Part shown: piece by piece, positions 3,205-24,524 of the stretch
Numbering within the stretch: position 1 is the first letter of the stretch
Layout of the letters: the number at the start of each line of letters is the position of its first letter
From: Candidatus Curtissbacteria bacterium
GTDB taxonomy: Bacteria; Patescibacteriota; Microgenomatia; Curtissbacterales; GWA2-41-24
Direction: 5' to 3'
NCBI GenBank assembly: GCA_030688205.1
Contig: JAUYIQ010000059.1
Location: 1 to 36,866, forward strand
DNA: 36,866 nucleotides
The notes under the pieces: generated by a model
What the model was told of the DNA's origin: nothing
Databases searched by the model: none
The model's input: the letters and a program-made list of their open reading frames with translations, nothing else
Position numbers and translations under genes: made by a program

Positions 3205-4728
3205 ATGCTAGCTAAAATAACATCTGCCGCTGTTGTCGGATTGGACGCAGTACCGATAACAGTCGAAGTAGATATTGCGGCAATGGGCCTCCCATCCTTC
3301 ACAATAGTCGGTCTTGCAGACAAAGCAGTTCAGGAGTCGAAAGAAAGGGTACGTGCTGCTCTTAAAAACTCAGGCGCAGATATGCCGCCAAAGAGAATTA
3401 CCATAAACTTGGCACCAGCAGATCTCCCCAAAGAAGGCCCGGCATACGATTTGCCGATAGCGCTTGGAATTCTGGTTGCTTCAGGACAATTGCCCCAGCT
3501 GGATTTTTCCGACGCTATTTTTTTAGGTGAACTTTCACTTGATGGATCATTGCTTCCGATATGGGGAATATTACCCTGCGCAATTTTGGCAAGAGATAAA
3601 AATTTCCACAGCATTTTTCTGCCCGAAGAAAATTTAGAAGAAGCCCAATCAGTAAACAAGATAAAAATTTTTCCTGTCAAATCACTAAAACAACTTTTCG
3701 ACCATTTCGCAAACCCCCAAAAACAAATAACTCCGGCAAACTTTAAGAAACAAAAATATTCAAATATTCAGAACCCGGAATACGATTTTGAAAACATCAA
3801 AGGACAGGAAAGTGCCAAACGCGCTTTAGAAATTGCCGCAGCCGGTAGCCACAATGTTTTGATGAAAGGCCCGCCCGGAGCAGGTAAAACACTTATGGCA
3901 AGAAGTTTTGCAACAATTCTCCCGAACCTTTCTTTTGAAGAAAGCCTGGAAGTTACAAAAATATATTCAGTTGCAAACCTTCTTTCAAGCGATACCCCAA
4001 TAATTTTATCCCGTCCATTCCGCAGCCCGCACCATACAACAAGCAATGTTGGCTTAATCGGAGGTGGAAATACTCCAAGACCCGGCGAAATATCACTGGC
4101 ACACCGAGGCGTACTTTTCCTGGACGAGTTTCCCGAATTTCCAAGACACGTTCTAGAGGCACTACGCCAACCAATTGAGGATGGTGAAGTTACAATATCA
4201 AGAGCTGCAGGCTCCGTAAAATTTCCCTGCAGGTTCTCGCTCGTTGCGGCAGCTAATCCTTGCCCATGCGGATACTTTGGCGACGAAACCAGAAACTGCA
4301 CTTGTAGTCCCTCAACAATTACCACATATCAAAAAAGAATCTCCGGCCCAATTTTAGATCGAATAGATATTCACATTACTGTCCCTGCGATCCCCCCTGG
4401 TAAATTAACAGGAAAGTTTCAATCAGAATCATCAGCCAGCATTCAAAAACGAGTTCAAAAAGCCCGCGACAATCAACTTAAAAGATTTAAAGGTCTAAAA
4501 ATAACGTCAAATGCGGAGATGAACAATAAGCAACTAAAACAATTTTGTAATTTAGACGACCAATCAATCCTTCTTCTTAAACAAGCGATTGCAAAACTGA
4601 ACCTATCCGCCCGCGCATTTCACCGAGTAATCAAAATTGCCAGAACCATCGCCGATCTCGAAGAATCTATCAAAATCAAATCCAATCATATCGCAGAGGC
4701 TCTCCAATATCGACCAACAGATAGTTAA
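3205..4728 (+). CDS. comM: YifB/ComM Mg-chelatase-like AAA+ ATPase
   Basis: ESKERVRAAL, ITINLAPADLPKEG, Walker A GPPGAGKT, RPFRSPHH, GEISLAHRGVLFLDE, NPCPCGY, LSARAFHRVIKIARTIADL. Confidence 0.95.
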   Translation: MLAKITSAAVVGLDAVPITVEVDIAAMGLPSFTIVGLADKAVQESKERVRAALKNSGADMPPKRITINLAPADLPKEGPAYDLPIALGILVASGQLPQLDFSDAIFLGELSLDGSLLPIWGILPCAILARDKNFHSIFLPEENLEEAQSVNKIKIFPVKSLKQLFDHFANPQKQITPANFKKQKYSNIQNPEYDFENIKGQESAKRALEIAAAGSHNVLMKGPPGAGKTLMARSFATILPNLSFEESLEVTKIYSVANLLSSDTPIILSRPFRSPHHTTSNVGLIGGGNTPRPGEISLAHRGVLFLDEFPEFPRHVLEALRQPIEDGEVTISRAAGSVKFPCRFSLVAAANPCPCGYFGDETRNCTCSPSTITTYQKRISGPILDRIDIHITVPAIPPGKLTGKFQSESSASIQKRVQKARDNQLKRFKGLKITSNAEMNNKQLKQFCNLDDQSILLLKQAIAKLNLSARAFHRVIKIARTIADLEESIKIKSNHIAEALQYRPTDS

Positions 4729-4822: not shown

Positions 4823-5491
4823 TTGAAAAGGTTTGAGAAAAAGATTCTTAGCTTTGATGAGTTTTTCCTAACGGGAAAGCAATATCGATTCAAAAAAGGC
4901 CAACTTATATTAAGACCCGACATTATTCCTACTGGTCTTTATTACATCGAAAAAGGCTACGTTCGCGTTTATTACCTAACCGAATCAGGCAGAGAGAAAC
5001 TCCACGTTATCTATAAAAAAGACGAACTGTTCCCTCTTCTTTTAGTTTTAAAAAAAATCCATAAGGACGCTTATTATGAAGCCATGGATGAGGTAGTATG
5101 CCGAAAAATTGAAGCGAAAGTTTTTCTAGAACAATTATCAAAAAACCCTCACTTTTCTTTTGCCCTCACCCAAAGACTGACTGATCTTTTGAATGTTTTT
5201 ATAAATAGATTAGACAACCTGGAAACCCATGGAGGACCCTCCAGAGTGATAGCCAGATTATTATTTTTAGCTGAAAGATTTGGACTAAAGACAAAGGATG
5301 GAATTTTAATTGAGGTTCCTGTTACCCACAAAGACATAGCCGACTCTGTCGCATTAAATAGGGAATCTGTTAGCCGCCAGATAGAAGATCTTCTAAAAAG
5401 ACAAATTATTGAAGTAAAAAATCATAAATTCCTTATCCCAAAAATCAGAAAACTACAAAAAGAATTATTAAACCAAGAAGATCGATATTAA
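4823..5491 (+). CDS. Crp/Fnr family transcriptional regulator
   Basis: cNMP-binding-like N domain (FKKGQLI, LYYIEKGYVRVY, ESGRE); C-terminal HTH THKDIADSVALNRESVSRQI. Confidence 0.92.
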   Translation: MKRFEKKILSFDEFFLTGKQYRFKKGQLILRPDIIPTGLYYIEKGYVRVYYLTESGREKLHVIYKKDELFPLLLVLKKIHKDAYYEAMDEVVCRKIEAKVFLEQLSKNPHFSFALTQRLTDLLNVFINRLDNLETHGGPSRVIARLLFLAERFGLKTKDGILIEVPVTHKDIADSVALNRESVSRQIEDLLKRQIIEVKNHKFLIPKIRKLQKELLNQEDRY

Positions 5492-5844
5492 CAATTGCAG
5501 GTACTTTTAGAGATAACCTCATTTGTCGGGATTATTCGATATTTACCGTCATTTTCAGGAAGTCCTTTTGGTAATAAATAACCCTGCCACTTGCCCTGTC
5601 CTACGCAAAGCTCAAGATGGACTGAATCGGTAAGTCCCGGCTCGTCTTCAACCTCAAAAGCTCGAAAATACCCACAAGCGATGATTTTATCCGGTTTATG
5701 CTTTTTCTTTGATCCAATTAAAACTGCACCAATATTTTTAGCAAATGACCAAATAAATTTCCCTTGACCGTCTAATATTATAAATCTTGTTCTAATATCT
5801 GTTTCGAAAAGCTCATATTCTCCTTCTTTTAACTTTTTAACCAT
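5488..5844 (-). CDS. Hypothetical protein, divergent from the stress operon
   Basis: 118-aa ORF from ATG at 5844, preceded 6 nt upstream by TATTTT; no family recognised. Confidence 0.7.
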   Translation of the reverse strand: MVKKLKEGEYELFETDIRTRFIILDGQGKFIWSFAKNIGAVLIGSKKKHKPDKIIACGYFRAFEVEDEPGLTDSVHLELCVGQGKWQGYLLPKGLPENDGKYRIIPTNEVISKSTCNC

Positions 5845-5877
5845 CCCCAAAAAATAAATTATCTAAGAATAAATTTC

Positions 5878-5893
5878 CGTGATTCTAATCACA
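5878..5893. promoter_or_regulatory. CRP-type operator CGTGA-N6-TCACA
   Basis: 9/10 match to TGTGA-N6-TCACA in the divergent intergenic region near the Crp/Fnr gene; centre is -41.5 relative to the minus-strand ATG at 5844. Confidence 0.75.
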
Positions 5894-5900
5894 ATTGTAA

Positions 5901-5916
5901 GGTGATCCGTCGCACT
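5901..5916. promoter_or_regulatory. Second, weaker CRP-type site GGTGA-N6-GCACT
   Basis: 7/10 match with the GTGA/CAC core retained; 23 bp from the first site. Confidence 0.45.
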
Positions 5917-5980
5917 GGCCTTTTGTAATTTTAAATACTGAAAGTTGCAATTATTTGTATTAGTCTTTGCGCGGTGCAAT

Positions 5981-6196
5981 ATGACAAGAGGGATTTATTC
6001 AATTAGAAATACAGTACTTCTGCCTAGCTTTGGTTTCTGGGAAGCACTTTCATTATTGGAACCCAAATTGAACTCTTCTACAAGATTCATTAATGGCATA
6101 TTTCAAAAATCATTAATTGGACAAATTTTCCAACTTCTAACTTCCAATCCAAACAAAACCACGTCAAACGCATTTGAGAGGGGTGAGTATAAATGA
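5981..6196 (+). CDS. Possible small hypothetical protein (or long 5' leader of the hsp20 operon)
   Basis: Open frame whose stop overlaps the hsp20 ATG; no motif recognised. Confidence 0.3.
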   Translation: MTRGIYSIRNTVLLPSFGFWEALSLLEPKLNSSTRFINGIFQKSLIGQIFQLLTSNPNKTTSNAFERGEYK

Positions 6197-6597
6197 ATGG
6201 TTACTTAATGCCACGTTCCTTATTGGGTTTCCCAACTTTGTTTGAAGAATTAGAAGAAGAATTGATTCCTTCGACCACAACAATTAGCGGACTATCTATT
6301 TTCGAAGACGGCAAAAATGTTTATGTTGAAGCAGCGGTTCCCGGTATAGACCCTAAAAATGCAGATGTAACATTCAACAGAGGGATACTAACCATCACCG
6401 GCGAGAAAACAGAGGAAGAGAAAAAGAAAAAGTACTTTCGCAAGGCATCAAGCTCTTTTTCTTACCGCGTATTAGTTCCTGGAGAAATTGATTCTAACAA
6501 AGAACCAAAGGCTGAAAGCAAAAATGGTGTGATGACGGTAACATTTGCAAAAATGCCCCAGTCACAACCTAAAAAAATTGCCGTTAAAACCGACTAA
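6193..6597 (+). CDS. Hsp20/alpha-crystallin small heat-shock protein
   Basis: VYVEAAVPGID, GILTITGEK, SFSYRVLVP, AESKNGVMTVTFAK, KKIAV; SD-like GAGGGGTGA upstream. Confidence 0.93.
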   Translation: MNGYLMPRSLLGFPTLFEELEEELIPSTTTISGLSIFEDGKNVYVEAAVPGIDPKNADVTFNRGILTITGEKTEEEKKKKYFRKASSSFSYRVLVPGEIDSNKEPKAESKNGVMTVTFAKMPQSQPKKIAVKTD

Positions 6598-6598
6598 A

Positions 6599-6952
6599 AT
6601 GAATCTTTGTGTAACTACAAAATATTATCAAGCTTCAAGTTCTCTCTGGGAAGCTGTTGAGAGGAATGTCGAAAAGTTAAAATATCGCTTGCCGAATCTC
6701 GGCCCTAATCTTGGGTTGATTAAACTTTTTATCAAAAGAAACAAAAGGAGAAATTATTTTGATGGATCTGTTTCACTTTCTTTACCCAAGAAACACTTAT
6801 ACGCGCATTTTATTGGACTATATCCTGAAGAAGAAGTTAATAACGCATTCGAGCGCCTGTTTAAAGAATTAAGTAAATATAAAGGCAAACATTTTACAAA
6901 CTACAGTCAATATTTTCGACATGATTCCATCCGTCAATATATTGGCCAGTAA
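6599..6952 (+). CDS. HPF/RaiA (S30AE)-like ribosome hibernation protein, divergent
   Basis: MNLCVTTK..WEAVERNVEKLKYRL..GSVSLSLPKKHLYA..EEVNNAFERLFKELSKYKGK follows the HPF pattern MNI-ITG..LREYVEEKL-KL..VEITL-LPG..AIDLAVDKLERQLRKYKEK. ATG 6599 directly follows the hsp20 stop. Confidence 0.72.
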   Translation: MNLCVTTKYYQASSSLWEAVERNVEKLKYRLPNLGPNLGLIKLFIKRNKRRNYFDGSVSLSLPKKHLYAHFIGLYPEEEVNNAFERLFKELSKYKGKHFTNYSQYFRHDSIRQYIGQ

Positions 6953-6954
6953 AA

Positions 6955-7644
6955 ATGAAAAATCAAAAAAACTACAAAAAGCAACTGACAGAGCTCATTG
7001 AAAATTACATTAAACCTCTAGGGGTCACAGATTCAAGGGTGATTAGTGCTTTCAGAAAAGTTCCAAGGCATAAGTTTGTCCCGGCAAATTATCAGAAAGA
7101 TGCCTACTTAGATATCCCTCTGCCAATCGGAGAAGGTCAAACAATCAGTCAGCCTTCATTGGTCGGCGTAATGACGCAAGCGTTGGAATTAAAAGGCCGC
7201 GAAAAAGTTTTGGAGGTCGGTACCGGTTCTGGCTTCCAGGCAGCAATTCTCTCACATCTAGCCAAAAAGGTTTACACAATTGAAATTATCGGAAGGTTGG
7301 CGGATAAAGCGGCTAAAACCCTCAAAGACCTTCACTGCGACAATGTTCATGCTGAAATTGGCGATGGCTCGCAAGGCCTTCCGGAATATGCGCCATATGA
7401 TGCAATTATTGTAACAGCCGCAAGTAATCAAATCCCCAAACCGCTTGTAGATCAGCTTAAAATTGGGGGGAAAATTATTATCCCTGTTGGAGATAGCCTC
7501 TATGGACAACAATTAAAAGTTGGCAAAAAAGTTGGCAACACAATCAAGTTTATCGATATAGAGCCGGTTGCCTTTGTCCCGCTGCGCGGAAAATTTGGTT
7601 TTGACCAAAACTTTAGCCAATCAAAATTTTTTTCAGCAACTTGA
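6955..7644 (+). CDS. pcm: Protein-L-isoaspartate O-methyltransferase
   Basis: VPRHKFVP, AYLDIPLPIGEGQTISQP, VLEVGTGSGFQAAIL, APYDAIIVTAA, VAFVPL. Confidence 0.95.
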   Translation: MKNQKNYKKQLTELIENYIKPLGVTDSRVISAFRKVPRHKFVPANYQKDAYLDIPLPIGEGQTISQPSLVGVMTQALELKGREKVLEVGTGSGFQAAILSHLAKKVYTIEIIGRLADKAAKTLKDLHCDNVHAEIGDGSQGLPEYAPYDAIIVTAASNQIPKPLVDQLKIGGKIIIPVGDSLYGQQLKVGKKVGNTIKFIDIEPVAFVPLRGKFGFDQNFSQSKFFSAT

Positions 7645-8432
7645 ACTGGGAAAAATTATCTAAGATCGTGGAAAACGAAGTTGAAAAAACATTAATAAAA
7701 CTCGAAACATTTCTCAATTCTAAATTTCCAATCCTGTCAGTTTATTTAGGAATATCACAAAGAAAGTCTCCATCCTCAACCTTTTTACTCTCAATATTCC
7801 ACTCGCAAGTACACCAAAACTTAAAAGAGGAAGGACAAAAAACTTTCAAGAAGGATCTGGCTAGAATAGATGATTTCCTTAATACTTCTTACGATAGCCG
7901 AGGTAGACGAAGCATTGTATTTTTCACAGCAGGCAATAATTTATGGGAAACATTGGAATTTGAATTCTACCTTCCTCCACTATGCATAGTTTCAAATTCC
8001 CCTTATACCAATCCGATAATCGAAGTGCTCGGCAAGTACAAACCATATTTAGTTCTTTTAGCAGATAGAAAAAAAGCAAGGCTTTTTACAGTTCATCTTG
8101 GTCGGATTCAAGAACACAAAGATGTATTTAATGCCGAAGTACCACAAAGAGTAAAACATGGAGATAATACTTGGGATCAGCAAGATAAAATAATGAGGCA
8201 TATCGAAGACCACCTGCACAGGCACCTTAAGTTTATAGCACAAGAAACCAGAGAGTTTGTCAAAAAACATCCCGTTAAATTTGTGATAGTCGGCGGACAC
8301 AAAGACATTATCCCAAAAATTAAAAAACACCTAACTTATCCGCTTAACAAAATAGTCACAAGAGAATTTGTTACCGAACTTAATATTCCCTTAAACGAAG
8401 TTTTTCTACACAGCAAGAAAATAGCCAAATAA
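7641..8432 (+). CDS. Bacterial aeRF1-superfamily (baeRF/Balon-like) protein, N+M domains only, no GGQ
   Basis: PILSVYL, KDLARIDDFL, SIVFF, PYTNPI, YLVLLADRKKARLF, DHLHRHLKFIA, VIVGG; the GGQ-position loop reads HGDNTWDQQ. Confidence 0.78.
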   Translation: MNWEKLSKIVENEVEKTLIKLETFLNSKFPILSVYLGISQRKSPSSTFLLSIFHSQVHQNLKEEGQKTFKKDLARIDDFLNTSYDSRGRRSIVFFTAGNNLWETLEFEFYLPPLCIVSNSPYTNPIIEVLGKYKPYLVLLADRKKARLFTVHLGRIQEHKDVFNAEVPQRVKHGDNTWDQQDKIMRHIEDHLHRHLKFIAQETREFVKKHPVKFVIVGGHKDIIPKIKKHLTYPLNKIVTREFVTELNIPLNEVFLHSKKIAK

Positions 8433-8449
8433 AAATATATAATGGATGA

Positions 8450-9232
8450 ATGTTAAAAATGCCTGTGGAGAAGTTGCTTGATTTATCGGGAAAAACTGCA
8501 ATCATAACCGGTGCTGTTGGGATTGGCTTTGGCATTGCGTATCGACTGGCAGAGGCTGGAGCAAATGTTATGGTTGCAAGCTTGGGAGAAGAGGAAACTA
8601 CCGAGACGGCAAATAAGCTGAAAGGAAACGGGTGGAAAGCAACAGCCATTCAAGTTGATGTCGCTATCCAAGAAGACGTGAAACGAATGGTCGAGCGGAC
8701 AATTCAGACTTACGGTTCCATAGAAATTTTAGTGAATAATGCGGGCATATACCCATCGATTTCGGTCATGAAGATGACACTTGCCGACTTTGAAAAAGTT
8801 CTTGCGGTGAATTTAAAAAGCGTATTTTTGTGTACAAAATACGCGGCAGAGCAAATGATTAAGCAAGGTAATGGCGGAAGAATTATCAACATCACTTCAA
8901 TAGACGCTCTGCACCCGTCATCAGTTGGTCTTGCTCACTACGATGCGTCAAAGCATGGTGTCTGGGGTTTCACCAAGAATGTTGCCCTTGAACTTGCCCC
9001 CCACAAAATCTGGGTAAATGCTATTGCTCCGGGAGGTGTTCTTACCCCGGGCGTAGAGAAACTGCAGAAATCCAATAAAAATCTTCTTGAAAGTTTTCTT
9101 TCAAAAATTCCTATGCACAGACTCGGTGACACTGACGAAATAGGGAAAGTGGCGCTTTTTTTAGCATCCGATATGTCTTCTTACATGACCGGAAGCCAGA
9201 TAGTTGTTGACGGTGGTACACTTTTAACATAA
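8450..9232 (+). CDS. Short-chain dehydrogenase/reductase (SDR)
   Basis: TGAVGIG, ILVNNAGI, catalytic YDASK, VNAIAPGG, SYMTGSQIVVDGG. Confidence 0.95.
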   Translation: MLKMPVEKLLDLSGKTAIITGAVGIGFGIAYRLAEAGANVMVASLGEEETTETANKLKGNGWKATAIQVDVAIQEDVKRMVERTIQTYGSIEILVNNAGIYPSISVMKMTLADFEKVLAVNLKSVFLCTKYAAEQMIKQGNGGRIINITSIDALHPSSVGLAHYDASKHGVWGFTKNVALELAPHKIWVNAIAPGGVLTPGVEKLQKSNKNLLESFLSKIPMHRLGDTDEIGKVALFLASDMSSYMTGSQIVVDGGTLLT

Positions 9233-9249
9233 AGGAGGTGAATAAATAT

Positions 9250-9618
9250 ATGTTTGCAGAAGACATTAAAAAACTGACAAGCGAAAATACAAATTTCCGA
9301 AAAGTTTTACATACGGGTACTCACAGCCAGATTGTAGCAATGAGCATTCCCGCAAGCGGAGATATCGGTGAAGAAGTTCACCCGGATACTGACCAAATTC
9401 TCTTTTTTGTTGAAGGTGAAGGTGAAGCAATATTAAGCGGGGAAGTGCGAAATATTGACCTAAACGATGTAGTTTTCGTCCCGGCCGGTACAATGCATAA
9501 CTTTAAAAATACTACAGATCGTGATCTGAAACTTTTTACTGTTTACTCGCCACCACATCATCCCAACGGCACTATTCATAAAACAAAAGCAGATGCGGAA
9601 AAAGAGGAAGTTGTCTGA
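9250..9618 (+). CDS. Cupin domain protein
   Basis: IGEEVHPDTDQ, VFVPAGTMHNFKN, LFTVYSPPHH. The GTG at 9238 is part of an AAGGAGGTGA SD, so ATG 9250 is the likelier start. Confidence 0.9.
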   Translation: MFAEDIKKLTSENTNFRKVLHTGTHSQIVAMSIPASGDIGEEVHPDTDQILFFVEGEGEAILSGEVRNIDLNDVVFVPAGTMHNFKNTTDRDLKLFTVYSPPHHPNGTIHKTKADAEKEEVV

Positions 9619-9644: not shown

Positions 9645-10268
9645 GTGAAGAAAATAGTAATTGTTTCATTTGTCACGATTTTTGCTCTATTAGTTTTGCT
9701 AATTATCACAAGCATTTTTATAAGCTTCAAAACTATCAAGCCTACTACTGAGGTAATAAATCGCGATCTGAAAAACTATTTTTCCAAAATAGTATATATC
9801 CCTGAAGGAATACCGCCTCCGCAACAAACCCTAGACAAAACGGAATATTTTTGGGAGATGGAAACCCCGCAGGGCGAAGTCACAAGTATCAGGCTCAAAT
9901 ATGATCCATCATTTACAAAAGGAAAAAACACAATTCAAGTGATTTTAGAAATGCCGGAAAATGGAGACCCGAGTATTTTTAACAAAGTTCTACCCGCAGT
10001 AATTTCAGATAAACAGTCCCTTGATTCTGCCCAAGATCCTCAAAAGGCGAATTTAAATGCCAATCAGGAATTAGGTTACGAAAAACTATCATTGTTTACA
10101 AAAAAGGAAACAAATCAAACAACAAAAATCATTTGGGAATTCAAAAAAGAATCTTTGGGAGACAAAATTAATCAGGAGTACGCAAAACTTTACAAATACC
10201 CGCCAGCACTCTTCAAAATTCTATACAACGTGCCTCAAATTACCTTGGGCCTTCTTGCCGCAGGTTAA
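9645..10268 (+). CDS. Hypothetical membrane-anchored protein
   Basis: N-terminal TM helix; GTG 6 nt after TGt-TAGAAT. Confidence 0.7.
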   Translation: MKKIVIVSFVTIFALLVLLIITSIFISFKTIKPTTEVINRDLKNYFSKIVYIPEGIPPPQQTLDKTEYFWEMETPQGEVTSIRLKYDPSFTKGKNTIQVILEMPENGDPSIFNKVLPAVISDKQSLDSAQDPQKANLNANQELGYEKLSLFTKKETNQTTKIIWEFKKESLGDKINQEYAKLYKYPPALFKILYNVPQITLGLLAAG

Positions 10269-10334: not shown

Positions 10335-10354
10335 CCACGGCCTTTAGACCGTGG
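10335..10354. repeat. Palindrome CCACGGCCTTTAGACCGTGG resembling REP or IS200/IS605-type end hairpins
   Basis: Imperfect inverted repeat in the convergent intergenic region; no transposase nearby. Confidence 0.4.
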
Positions 10355-24453: not shown

Positions 24454-24524
24454 TGCGGGATCGTCTAACGGTAGGACAACGGCCTCTGAAGCCGTTTATT
24501 TAGGTTCAAATCCTAATCCCGCAG
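24454..24524 (+). tRNA. tRNA-Gln (CUG), CCA not encoded
   Basis: Acceptor TGCGGGA/TCCCGCA + G; D arm GTCT..GGAC; anticodon arm ACGGC-CTCTGAA-GCCGT; T arm TTAGG-TTCAAAT-CCTAA; followed by CAA. Confidence 0.95.

Follow-up and report, generated by a model that had tools for sequence, protein, structure and literature searches.

The window analyzed here, a term we use for the stretch at its full length, is a 36,866-nucleotide (nt) contig (C55) of a Candidatus Curtissbacteria bacterium and belongs to an assembly of 969 kb in 105 contigs that is 86.7% complete. The nearest named homologs of the window proteins belong to Candidatus Curtissbacteria, followed by those of Levybacteria, Daviesbacteria, and further Microgenomates, which places the host among the CPR/Patescibacteria. 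Reading the open reading frames (ORFs) and their junctions, we found six genes on the same strand at positions 6193 to 9618, encoding in this order the small heat shock protein Hsp20, a protein of the hibernation-promoting factor (HPF) type, a protein-L-isoaspartate O-methyltransferase (PIMT), a family 10 member of the bacterial aeRF1 homologs (baeRF), a short-chain dehydrogenase/reductase (SDR), and a cupin. We propose that they form a stress or quiescence operon of a Curtissbacteria-like bacterium of the candidate phyla radiation (CPR), the conserved core of which is a pair of ribosome-silencing proteins, and we give this reading a probability of about 0.6. It builds on what our analysis showed: which proteins the genes encode, how their products fold in models, how tightly the genes are packed, and that the HPF-baeRF pair is conserved, as are CRP-type boxes together with a linked Crp gene. 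The original prediction for this locus, which had described a Crp-controlled dormancy module, is partly supported: the module is real and coherent, and several points of its interpretation need revision.

RESULTS

The fourth gene encodes a two-domain relative of the ribosome-bound Balon homologs

The baeRF gene (7641 to 8432, + strand) encodes a protein of 263 amino acids (aa). Its residues 121 to 254 match the entry of baeRF-1 family 10 (PF18854) with 85.4 bits, against a cutoff of 27.1 (86.8 bits in the scan of its own genome), and its AlphaFold2 (AF2) model (predicted local distance difference test [pLDDT], 90) has an aeRF1/Balon-like fold, which bears out the fold expected in the original prediction. 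The best-matching folds were those of ribosome-bound Balon homologs (Z, 16.6, 16.5, 14.7, and 14.2; root mean square deviation [rmsd], 3.6 to 4.7; 229 to 243 residues). They include Msmeg1130 (8v9l_z; Z, 16.6; rmsd, 4.0; 243 residues aligned; Foldseek E value, 1.6e-13), Rv2629 (Z, 14.7), and Balon itself (Z, 14.0 to 14.2; rmsd, 3.6 to 3.9; for 8rd8_B, Z of 14.0, rmsd of 3.6, and 229 residues aligned), but chains of eRF1, with similar Z values, had an rmsd of about 9. Since residues 11 to 263 align only to residues 5 to 258 of the 375-residue Msmeg1130 chain, the protein comprises the N domain and the middle domain, the whole C domain being absent. The translation contains no GGQ, GGxSQ, or NIKS motif.

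Residues 164 to 177 are equivalent to the catalytic loop and would face the peptidyl-transferase center (PTC). V167, P168, Q169, and V171 were invariant in 48 out of 48 relatives, and the helix that follows the loop was also conserved (DKIxRHIEDHLHRHL), with R186 kept in 47 and R194 in 39 of the 48. In HMMER alignments, the proline of this VPQ motif pairs with the proline of VPGKQRKGGQ in aRF1, which places Q169 seven residues before the GGQ glutamine, and the baeRF positions equivalent to GGQ, 174 to 176, are variable. Msmeg1130, a proven noncatalytic hibernation factor, carries APQ at the place aligned with VPQ. The HMMER alignments to aRF1 and Msmeg1130 thus do not support the idea that Q169 stands in the place of the GGQ glutamine.

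A profile search of 1.84 billion representatives returned 2,151 relatives of the baeRF protein at an E value of ≤0.001, 130 of them at ≤1e-30. The best 150 comprised 52 two-domain forms (200 to 300 aa), mostly from CPR lineages, 16 shorter ones, and 82 three-domain forms, which have a Zn-ribbon C domain amounting to about 120 further residues. Among seven three-domain relatives that we checked, four scored above the window protein on PF18854 (100 to 123 bits). Within the best 150, the motif GGxSQ was found in 13/82 three-domain versus 0/52 two-domain relatives and the pattern [VIM]PQx[VI] in 37/52 two-domain versus 5/82 three-domain relatives. By this comparison, the two-domain subgroup of the window appears to have lost the GGxSQ motif and to have gained a different invariant glutamine. 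In PMC6514570, family 10 is singled out as keeping a conserved, possibly catalytic glutamine; since GGxSQ was seen in three-domain and not in two-domain relatives, that remark probably concerns the three-domain forms. Forms of about 150 aa that contain the middle domain alone were seen in many of the related loci L032 to L052 (e.g., L033:6992-7462), some with an HPF-like gene directly upstream (L032 to L035).

The second gene encodes a divergent short HPF/RaiA-type protein

The product of the second gene (6599 to 6952, + strand; 117 aa) was assigned to the HPF/RaiA type by its fold and by the profile of its family, not by a Pfam match of its own. The AF2 model (pLDDT, 80) has a beta-alpha-beta-beta-beta-alpha topology (E-H-E-E-E-H), and a Foldseek search of the PDB gave 37 matches at an E value of ≤0.001 (E values down to 8e-7 and target TM scores up to 0.87); among the matches listed, all were of the HPF/RaiA/YfiA/protein Y type, including 8rd8_D, the RaiA that is bound together with Balon. 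We aligned the protein with 10 homologs of 116 to 126 aa, and the profile of the resulting 11-member alignment (A1) matched Escherichia coli HPF over its full length (E value, 9e-4). The HPF fold that had been anticipated for positions 6599 to 6952 is thus well founded. At the level of the S30AE domain, the outcome was mixed: the window protein itself gave no Pfam or NCBIfam HPF match at an E value of ≤0.1 (PF02482 failed), but 9 of the 11 members of A1 matched PF02482 at an E value of ≤1 (best, 4.5e-8), the window protein not being among them. ORFs at the orthologous position in four related loci (L007, L013, L014, and L025) scored 24.5 to 31.0 bits on PF02482 (cutoff, 23.7).

The protein is a single-domain short form without the dimerization domain of long HPF, and it ends in a strongly conserved tail of about 20 aa (YKGKHFxNDSQYFRHxSxR). 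From its modeled fold, it may occupy the decoding region of the 30S subunit as HPF/RaiA does. We detected no second HPF-type gene in the assembly, which is 86.7% complete. An S30AE signal at C98:9723-9872 (17.4 bits) was rejected as spurious because it lies inside a gene for hydroxymethylglutaryl coenzyme A (HMG-CoA) reductase (L002:850-2016, 388.6 bits). That a CPR bacterium encodes HMG-CoA reductase is noteworthy in itself.

The HPF-baeRF pair is the fixed element of a variable neighborhood

We then compared 49 related loci, obtained by a nonexhaustive pattern scan with one genome per species. Neighbors up to 7 kb away from baeRF were identified by phmmer, for which the window proteins served as queries, and a Pfam scan of 235 neighboring ORFs gave agreeing counts. 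An HPF-like gene lies directly upstream of baeRF in 21 of the 49 loci; four further loci have less than 600 nt of upstream sequence, so that this adjacency could not be judged there. Crp is found near baeRF in 16 loci, a gene that we call orf120 (see below) in 10, and a cupin in 8. The other members of the operon are rarer: Hsp20 is present in just three loci (L006, L009, and L018), PIMT in just two (adjacent in L005 and divergent in L038), and an ortholog of the SDR in one (L035). Four loci labeled Saccharibacteria (L023, L027, L028, and L030) have baeRF without an adjacent HPF-like gene.

The full hsp20-HPF-PIMT-baeRF cassette recurs in G021, a genome from a different genus of the same family, with the gene order and spacing of the window, a crp gene divergent upstream, and a perfect TGTGACGTTTGTCACA box. 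Hsp20 stands at the equivalent position in L006, L009, L018, and G021. Other recurrent neighbors of baeRF are RtcB, archease, UPF0047, dienelactone hydrolase-like, phosphoribosyltransferase, bPH_2, Usp, AAA_28, and PNPOx proteins. RtcB directly flanks the HPF-like/baeRF pair in four loci (L008:5068-6537, L018:6932-8848, L033:4629-6125, and L035:5098-6546), and in L018 it is preceded by archease. Judged from gene order, the related loci thus form a variable stress island around a fixed HPF-baeRF pair, to which Hsp20 and PIMT appear as lineage-specific additions. The clustering announced in the original prediction holds in relatives for the pair and for the cassette of G021 and does not extend to Hsp20 and PIMT in general.

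A baeRF homolog was present in only 3 of 60 relatives (one of the same genus, one of another genus of the family, and one of the order), and in 2 of the 31 relatives within the family. The module is an accessory island rather than a trait of CPR bacteria at large, and nothing ties it to the host-detached stage of a CPR episymbiont, a proposal with which its presence in 3 of 60 relatives fits poorly.

Two further observations were made at these loci. A zinc ribbon-like small protein (about 90 aa, two pairs of CxxC) is encoded near the HPF-like gene in eight loci (e.g., L008:7738-8010), and the window has no copy of it. In a metagenome-assembled genome labeled Levybacteria, L041:7936-14376 (- strand) encodes an unrelated 2,147-aa RHS-repeat/FG-GAP protein with a weak match to the TcdB middle/N region, beside a short baeRF gene.

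The genes are tightly packed and probably translationally coupled

From hsp20 to a gene for a 207-aa protein that follows the cupin gene, the gaps at the successive junctions are 1, 2, -4 (+23 with a GTG start at 7668), 17, 5, and 26 nt. The stop codon of hsp20 (TAA, 6595 to 6597) is separated by 1 nt from the ATG of the HPF-like gene (6599), the stop of which (6950 to 6952) lies 2 nt before the ATG of the PIMT gene (6955), and the TTG start of baeRF (7641) overlaps the PIMT gene, which ends with TGA at 7642 to 7644, by 4 nt. The alternative baeRF start, GTG 7668, is nine codons downstream of TTG 7641 and is that of the gene caller behind P0012. Obvious Shine-Dalgarno sites precede hsp20 and the cupin gene only, and none is visible for the internal genes. 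Since only these two genes have a good Shine-Dalgarno site, the others are probably translationally coupled. The tight gene run at 6193 to 8432 behind CRP-type sites and near a Crp/Fnr gene, as first reported in the original prediction, was confirmed by ORF calls, junctions, and Pfam/NCBIfam matches.

The 207-aa protein (9645 to 10268, + strand; starting 26 nt past the cupin gene) is predicted to be membrane anchored, has no family match in Pfam or NCBIfam, and has a homolog near baeRF in L005 (1e-99). Its gene is possibly the last one of the transcription unit. A terminator-like GC-rich hairpin followed by a T run (10335 to 10354, + strand) is the first such site on this strand past the operon.

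A Crp-family regulator and conserved CRP-type boxes are linked to the proposed operon

The gene at 4823 to 5491 (+ strand) encodes a Crp/Fnr-family regulator of 222 aa (PF13545, 49.7 bits; PF00027, 43.9 bits). It combines a cyclic nucleotide monophosphate (cNMP)-binding-like sensor domain with a C-terminal Crp-type helix-turn-helix (HTH), the recognition helix of which reads RESVSR. Among the 19 Crp proteins that we aligned, 17 keep the pattern RE[TS]xSR, and the window protein is one of them. In E. coli CRP, the Arg-Glu...Arg of the recognition helix (RETVGR) reads GTGA. The pocket motif appears to differ from the cAMP-contacting motif of E. coli CRP, and a class III cyclase (PF00211) was not found in the 86.7%-complete assembly, other cyclase classes not having been searched. 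On these two grounds, we dropped the cAMP-dependent CRP reading as unsupported, and the effector of this Crp is probably not cAMP. The assembly contains a second Crp-family gene (C86:11572-11787, - strand; PF13545, 61.8 bits). Just upstream of crp, positions 3205 to 4728 encode a YifB/ComM-type Mg chelatase-like AAA ATPase (TIGR00368, 633.8 bits).

Between crp and the operon lie two candidate CRP-type boxes. Box 1 (CGTGATTCTAATCACA, 5878 to 5893) has one mismatch to TGTGA-N6-TCACA and a palindromic core, GTGAT-N4-ATCAC. Box 2 (GGTGATCCGTCGCACT, 5901 to 5916) is weaker, is centered 23 bp from box 1, and aligns with the second box of L009. CRP-like sites with up to two mismatches are not enriched in the window (14 found versus 15.2 expected in shuffles), so the evidence lies in the position of the boxes and not in the number of sites. 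Exact GTGA-N6-TCAC cores number 6 in the assembly, versus 12.6 expected from composition, and the one at position 5879 is the sole core of the six outside ORFs of ≥90 aa; a single intergenic core fits a dedicated local regulator rather than a global one. In 560 kb of related loci, we counted 25 exact cores, of which 10, in 10 loci, are located at -400 to +150 of the first gene of the module, a range that covers 4.7% of the sequence, and 3 more at -401 to -425. The corresponding binomial value of 9e-8 is rough and only indicative because the loci are kin and not independent.

Equivalent boxes are found upstream of the module in 10 of the 49 loci and in G021. An alignment of the leaders revealed that the tandem boxes are kept in L009 and the strong box in G021 and L006. 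Two layouts recur. In the first, crp is divergent from the module and the boxes are common to both (L006, L007, L009, L013, L022, and G021); in the second, crp is followed by a convergent orf120 and the boxes lie between orf120 and the module (the window, L015, L019, L021, L038, L039, and L043). The suspected Crp link is thereby strengthened, as CRP-type boxes and a CRP-like recognition helix appear to be conserved together with the module. Another CRP-like site with one mismatch (TGTGATGACGGTAACA, 6528 to 6543), which may be due to chance, lies within the 3'-terminal part of hsp20 and precedes the start of the HPF-like gene by about 60 nt.

The gene orf120 (5488 to 5850, - strand), which the original prediction had missed, lies between crp and the boxes, convergent with the former and divergent from the operon. 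It encodes a conserved small protein of no recognized family and probably starts at ATG 5844 (118 aa). Homologs adjoin crp in 10 of the 49 related loci; they have 118 to 120 aa and share the invariant motifs WQGY and GLP. The protein has no match in Pfam or NCBIfam, and its profile retrieved nothing below an E value of 0.83 among PDB sequences. A word-based homolog search gave one relative, the Atlas yielded no usable lead, and the structure model of the protein itself was poor. With orf120 on one side (start about 28 nt away) and hsp20 on the other (ATG about 300 nt away), the boxes lie in a divergent promoter region, and orf120 may, from its position, be part of the same regulon as the operon.

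Between the boxes and hsp20 extends a long noncoding leader (5917 to 6192, + strand; about 280 nt) that contains a strong Shine-Dalgarno sequence (GAGAGGGGTGAG). It can be aligned end to end with the leader of G021 (L058), where the box-to-hsp20 distance is about 295 nt versus 300 nt in the window. Rfam recognized no known RNA element in the leader. A small leader ORF (5945 to 6196, 83 aa) was rejected because an indel between the window and G021 is not a multiple of 3 and because no cluster of homologs was obtained.

Remaining genes of the proposed operon

The first gene of the operon (6193 to 6597, + strand) encodes an Hsp20/alpha-crystallin small heat shock protein of 134 aa (PF00011, 54.8 bits; cutoff, 20.8). 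The third (6955 to 7644, + strand) encodes a PIMT/Pcm protein of 229 aa (PF01135, 207.1 bits) that passes two equivalog models (NF001453, 245.7 with a cutoff of 188; TIGR00080, 219.9 with a cutoff of 159). The SDR gene (8450 to 9232, + strand; 260 aa; PF13561, 217.8 bits; NF005559, 242 with a cutoff of 215) begins 17 nt after baeRF, and in L035 its ortholog (3e-131) is located directly 3' of baeRF. The sixth gene (9238 to 9618, + strand) encodes a Cupin_2 protein of 126 aa (PF07883, 45.8 bits). Elsewhere in the window, a tRNA gene (24454 to 24524) is the sole Rfam match.

DISCUSSION

Proposed mechanism and alternative explanations

We infer the following mechanism from the folds, the gene linkage, and the published behavior of relatives. 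The Crp-family regulator would bind the two tandem boxes (5878 to 5916) in the divergent promoter region of orf120 and the operon and would switch on a single transcript, hsp20-hpf-pcm-baeRF-SDR-cupin, possibly extended by the gene for the 207-aa protein. The short HPF/RaiA-type protein would act on the 30S subunit by filling its mRNA/tRNA channel. The two-domain baeRF protein would enter the A site as Balon does, with its N domain at the decoding center and with the VPQ loop of its middle domain and the following basic helix at the PTC. As it has no C domain, this entry would take place without contact to EF-Tu. While protein synthesis is shut down, Hsp20 would hold unfolding proteins and PIMT would repair isoaspartyl damage in long-lived ones.

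Several of our results weigh against this reading. The baeRF protein is without the EF-Tu-binding C domain, which all characterized Balon homologs use, and it stays far below the cutoffs of the NCBIfam models of hibernation factors (32.1 bits versus 320 on NF052289, the Rv2629-family model; 28.6 versus 330 on NF052287; and 24.6 versus 480 on NF052288), so that the term Balon-like, chosen in the original prediction, is accurate for the fold and the absence of GGQ and inaccurate if it is taken to mean a full Balon. The loop of the baeRF protein is almost fixed in length and its glutamine is invariant, and PMC6514570 treats an invariant glutamine and a near-fixed loop length as marks of catalytic families. 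To these points are added the failure of the HPF-like protein to match PF02482 at an E value of ≤0.1, the scarcity of Hsp20 and PIMT at related loci, and the small number of relatives with a baeRF homolog. Further, neither of two signal scans rose above shuffled sequence, the terminator scan finding 5 sites versus 5.7 expected and the promoter scan being at shuffle level, and the boxes, at 28 nt from orf120 versus 300 nt from hsp20, may chiefly control orf120.

The alternative that survives best, which we nevertheless consider rather unlikely, is that the baeRF protein is an active GTPase-independent peptidyl-tRNA hydrolase that serves in rescue or release, with Q169 as the catalytic residue; the cell would release first and hibernate afterwards, with HPF locking the empty 70S ribosome. 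The invariance of VPQ in all 48 relatives, the nearly fixed loop length, and the strong conservation of the next helix count in favor of such an enzyme, as does the mention of family 10 in PMC6514570 as Gln keeping and possibly catalytic. Two further points go the same way: related loci repeatedly carry the RNA repair genes for RtcB and archease next to the pair, and the assembly, which is 86.7% complete, yielded no RF-1-domain gene of ArfB size. However, Q169 falls seven residues short of the aRF1 GGQ glutamine by HMMER, positions 174 to 176 are variable, and the noncatalytic Msmeg1130 also has PQ at the aligned position. GGxSQ occurs in three-domain and not in two-domain relatives, some of the former that carry it being top scorers on PF18854, so that the published remark on family 10 probably does not bear on the two-domain subgroup, and the nearest folds are those of Balon homologs. 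We therefore favor ribosome silencing over hydrolysis for the baeRF protein.

We likewise think it unlikely that the locus is a loose Crp-linked accessory stress island in which the genes act independently and the boxes serve mainly orf120 and/or crp, which would make the term dormancy module an overreading. The neighbors of baeRF do vary widely, from the dienelactone hydrolase-like, phosphoribosyltransferase, UPF0047, bPH_2, Usp, AAA_28, and PNPOx proteins to RtcB; linkage to Hsp20 (3/49) and PIMT (2/49) is infrequent; the boxes adjoin orf120 or crp in most architectures; and the distribution is patchy. Yet an HPF-like gene directly precedes baeRF in 21 of the 49 loci, a genome of another genus repeats the four-gene cassette in identical order and with matching spacing, and gaps of 1 to 2 nt and a 4-nt overlap without internal Shine-Dalgarno sites are typical of co-translation. 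That adjacency and CRP-like sites are mere chance features of a compact genome is most improbable and was already disfavored, since conservation in more than one genus holds for the pair, for the cassette, and for the position of the boxes, even though CRP-like sites are not enriched window-wide (14 versus 15.2 expected) and neither the promoter scan nor the terminator scan exceeds shuffles.

A bolder version of the operon that we propose would combine silencing with catalysis. The two-domain family 10 proteins of CPR bacteria would then be a minimal, EF-Tu-independent A-site class, in which the VPQ glutamine reaches the PTC and hydrolyzes or traps peptidyl-tRNA and which forms, with its dedicated divergent HPF, a self-contained "release-and-lock" system under a non-cAMP Crp-type sensor. 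We regard this as a speculative and quite improbable scenario; if true, it would add to HPF/RMF and Balon-EF-Tu a third mode with a mechanism of its own.

The locus is of interest, first, because the proteins on which Balon-type hibernation has been defined to date all have three domains and sit on the ribosome with EF-Tu. The two-domain form keeps the domains that would face the decoding center and the PTC, cannot make the EF-Tu contact, and has no GG motif. In this respect, it offers a natural experiment on whether A-site hibernation requires EF-Tu and the C domain and on whether catalytic members exist among the baeRF proteins. Second, the Crp protein and the tandem TGTGA-N6-TCACA boxes are a candidate regulator-operator pair for stress control in a CPR genome; to our knowledge, regulation in CPR genomes is almost unstudied. 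Third, PIMT is added to the genes that travel with hibernation factors. As a kind of system, the locus is not new, and the module sits in few relatives.

Comparison with known systems

Like Balon, Msmeg1130, and Rv2629, the baeRF protein of the window has, in its model, the N and middle domains in the same mutual orientation and carries neither NIKS nor GGQ. Unlike Balon homologs, which have 360 to 390 aa, it has 263 aa, no C domain, and an invariant VPQ loop. According to PMC10901736 (2024), Balon is bound at the A site alongside RaiA, Rv2629 and Msmeg1130 are induced by hypoxia, and raiA is the commonest neighbor of Balon genes, with hsp20 and rtcB among the others; the window baeRF gene is similarly near an HPF/RaiA gene and, in this lineage, hsp20. 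The same paper states that sequences of <300 aa were discarded from the survey of Balon homologs, and this two-domain form consequently falls outside it. The protein passes the cutoff of baeRF-1 family 10 (PF18854; Burroughs and Aravind 2019, PMC6514570) and has an HPF neighborhood; unlike the highest-scoring family members that we checked, which are three-domain proteins with a Zn ribbon, its subgroup is without the C domain and the GG motif. An association of HPF genes with several baeRF-1 families, along with a proposed role in blocking the A site, is reported in that 2019 study.

The core pairing is hence not new, as the linkages of HPF with baeRF and of Balon with RaiA and Hsp20 are already in print, and the novelty implied by the original prediction was overrated, since the pairing of baeRF/Balon with HPF/RaiA, Hsp20, and RtcB can be found in PMC6514570 and PMC10901736. 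In a literature search that covered subscription journals thinly, no publication came up that deals with Balon-type factors of Patescibacteria or that links PIMT to hibernation operons, and in the portion of PMC13728122 available to us CPR is mentioned solely for AHA-like CBS-HPF proteins.

The HPF-like protein shares with short HPF/RaiA (YfiA; PF02482) its fold, its length class, and the full-length profile match to E. coli HPF, and it differs from short HPF in being too divergent for PF02482 and in its conserved 20-aa C-terminal tail. This tail is longer than that of the 95-aa HPF and resembles the tail of RaiA.

As in the mycobacterial DosR regulon, to which HspX, Rv0079 (RaiA type), and Rv2629 belong, a small heat shock protein, an S30AE-type factor, and a baeRF protein are placed under one stress regulator, here a predicted one. 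The DosR regulon differs in having scattered genes and a two-component system, whereas the window has a single predicted operon, a Crp-family regulator, and a PIMT gene. The E. coli CRP site is TGTGA-N6-TCACA, and both the consensus of the window boxes and the recognition helix (RESVSR versus RETVGR) appear to follow the E. coli model; unlike E. coli CRP, the window protein apparently has no cAMP-contacting motif, and its assembly contains one intergenic site. The inclusion of PIMT among stationary-phase genes has a parallel in the E. coli stationary-phase cluster surE-pcm-nlpD-rpoS. Against the background of these systems, what is new here is a conserved two-domain baeRF subgroup with a loop signature of its own and a dedicated divergent HPF, together with a conserved Crp operator and the insertion of PIMT.

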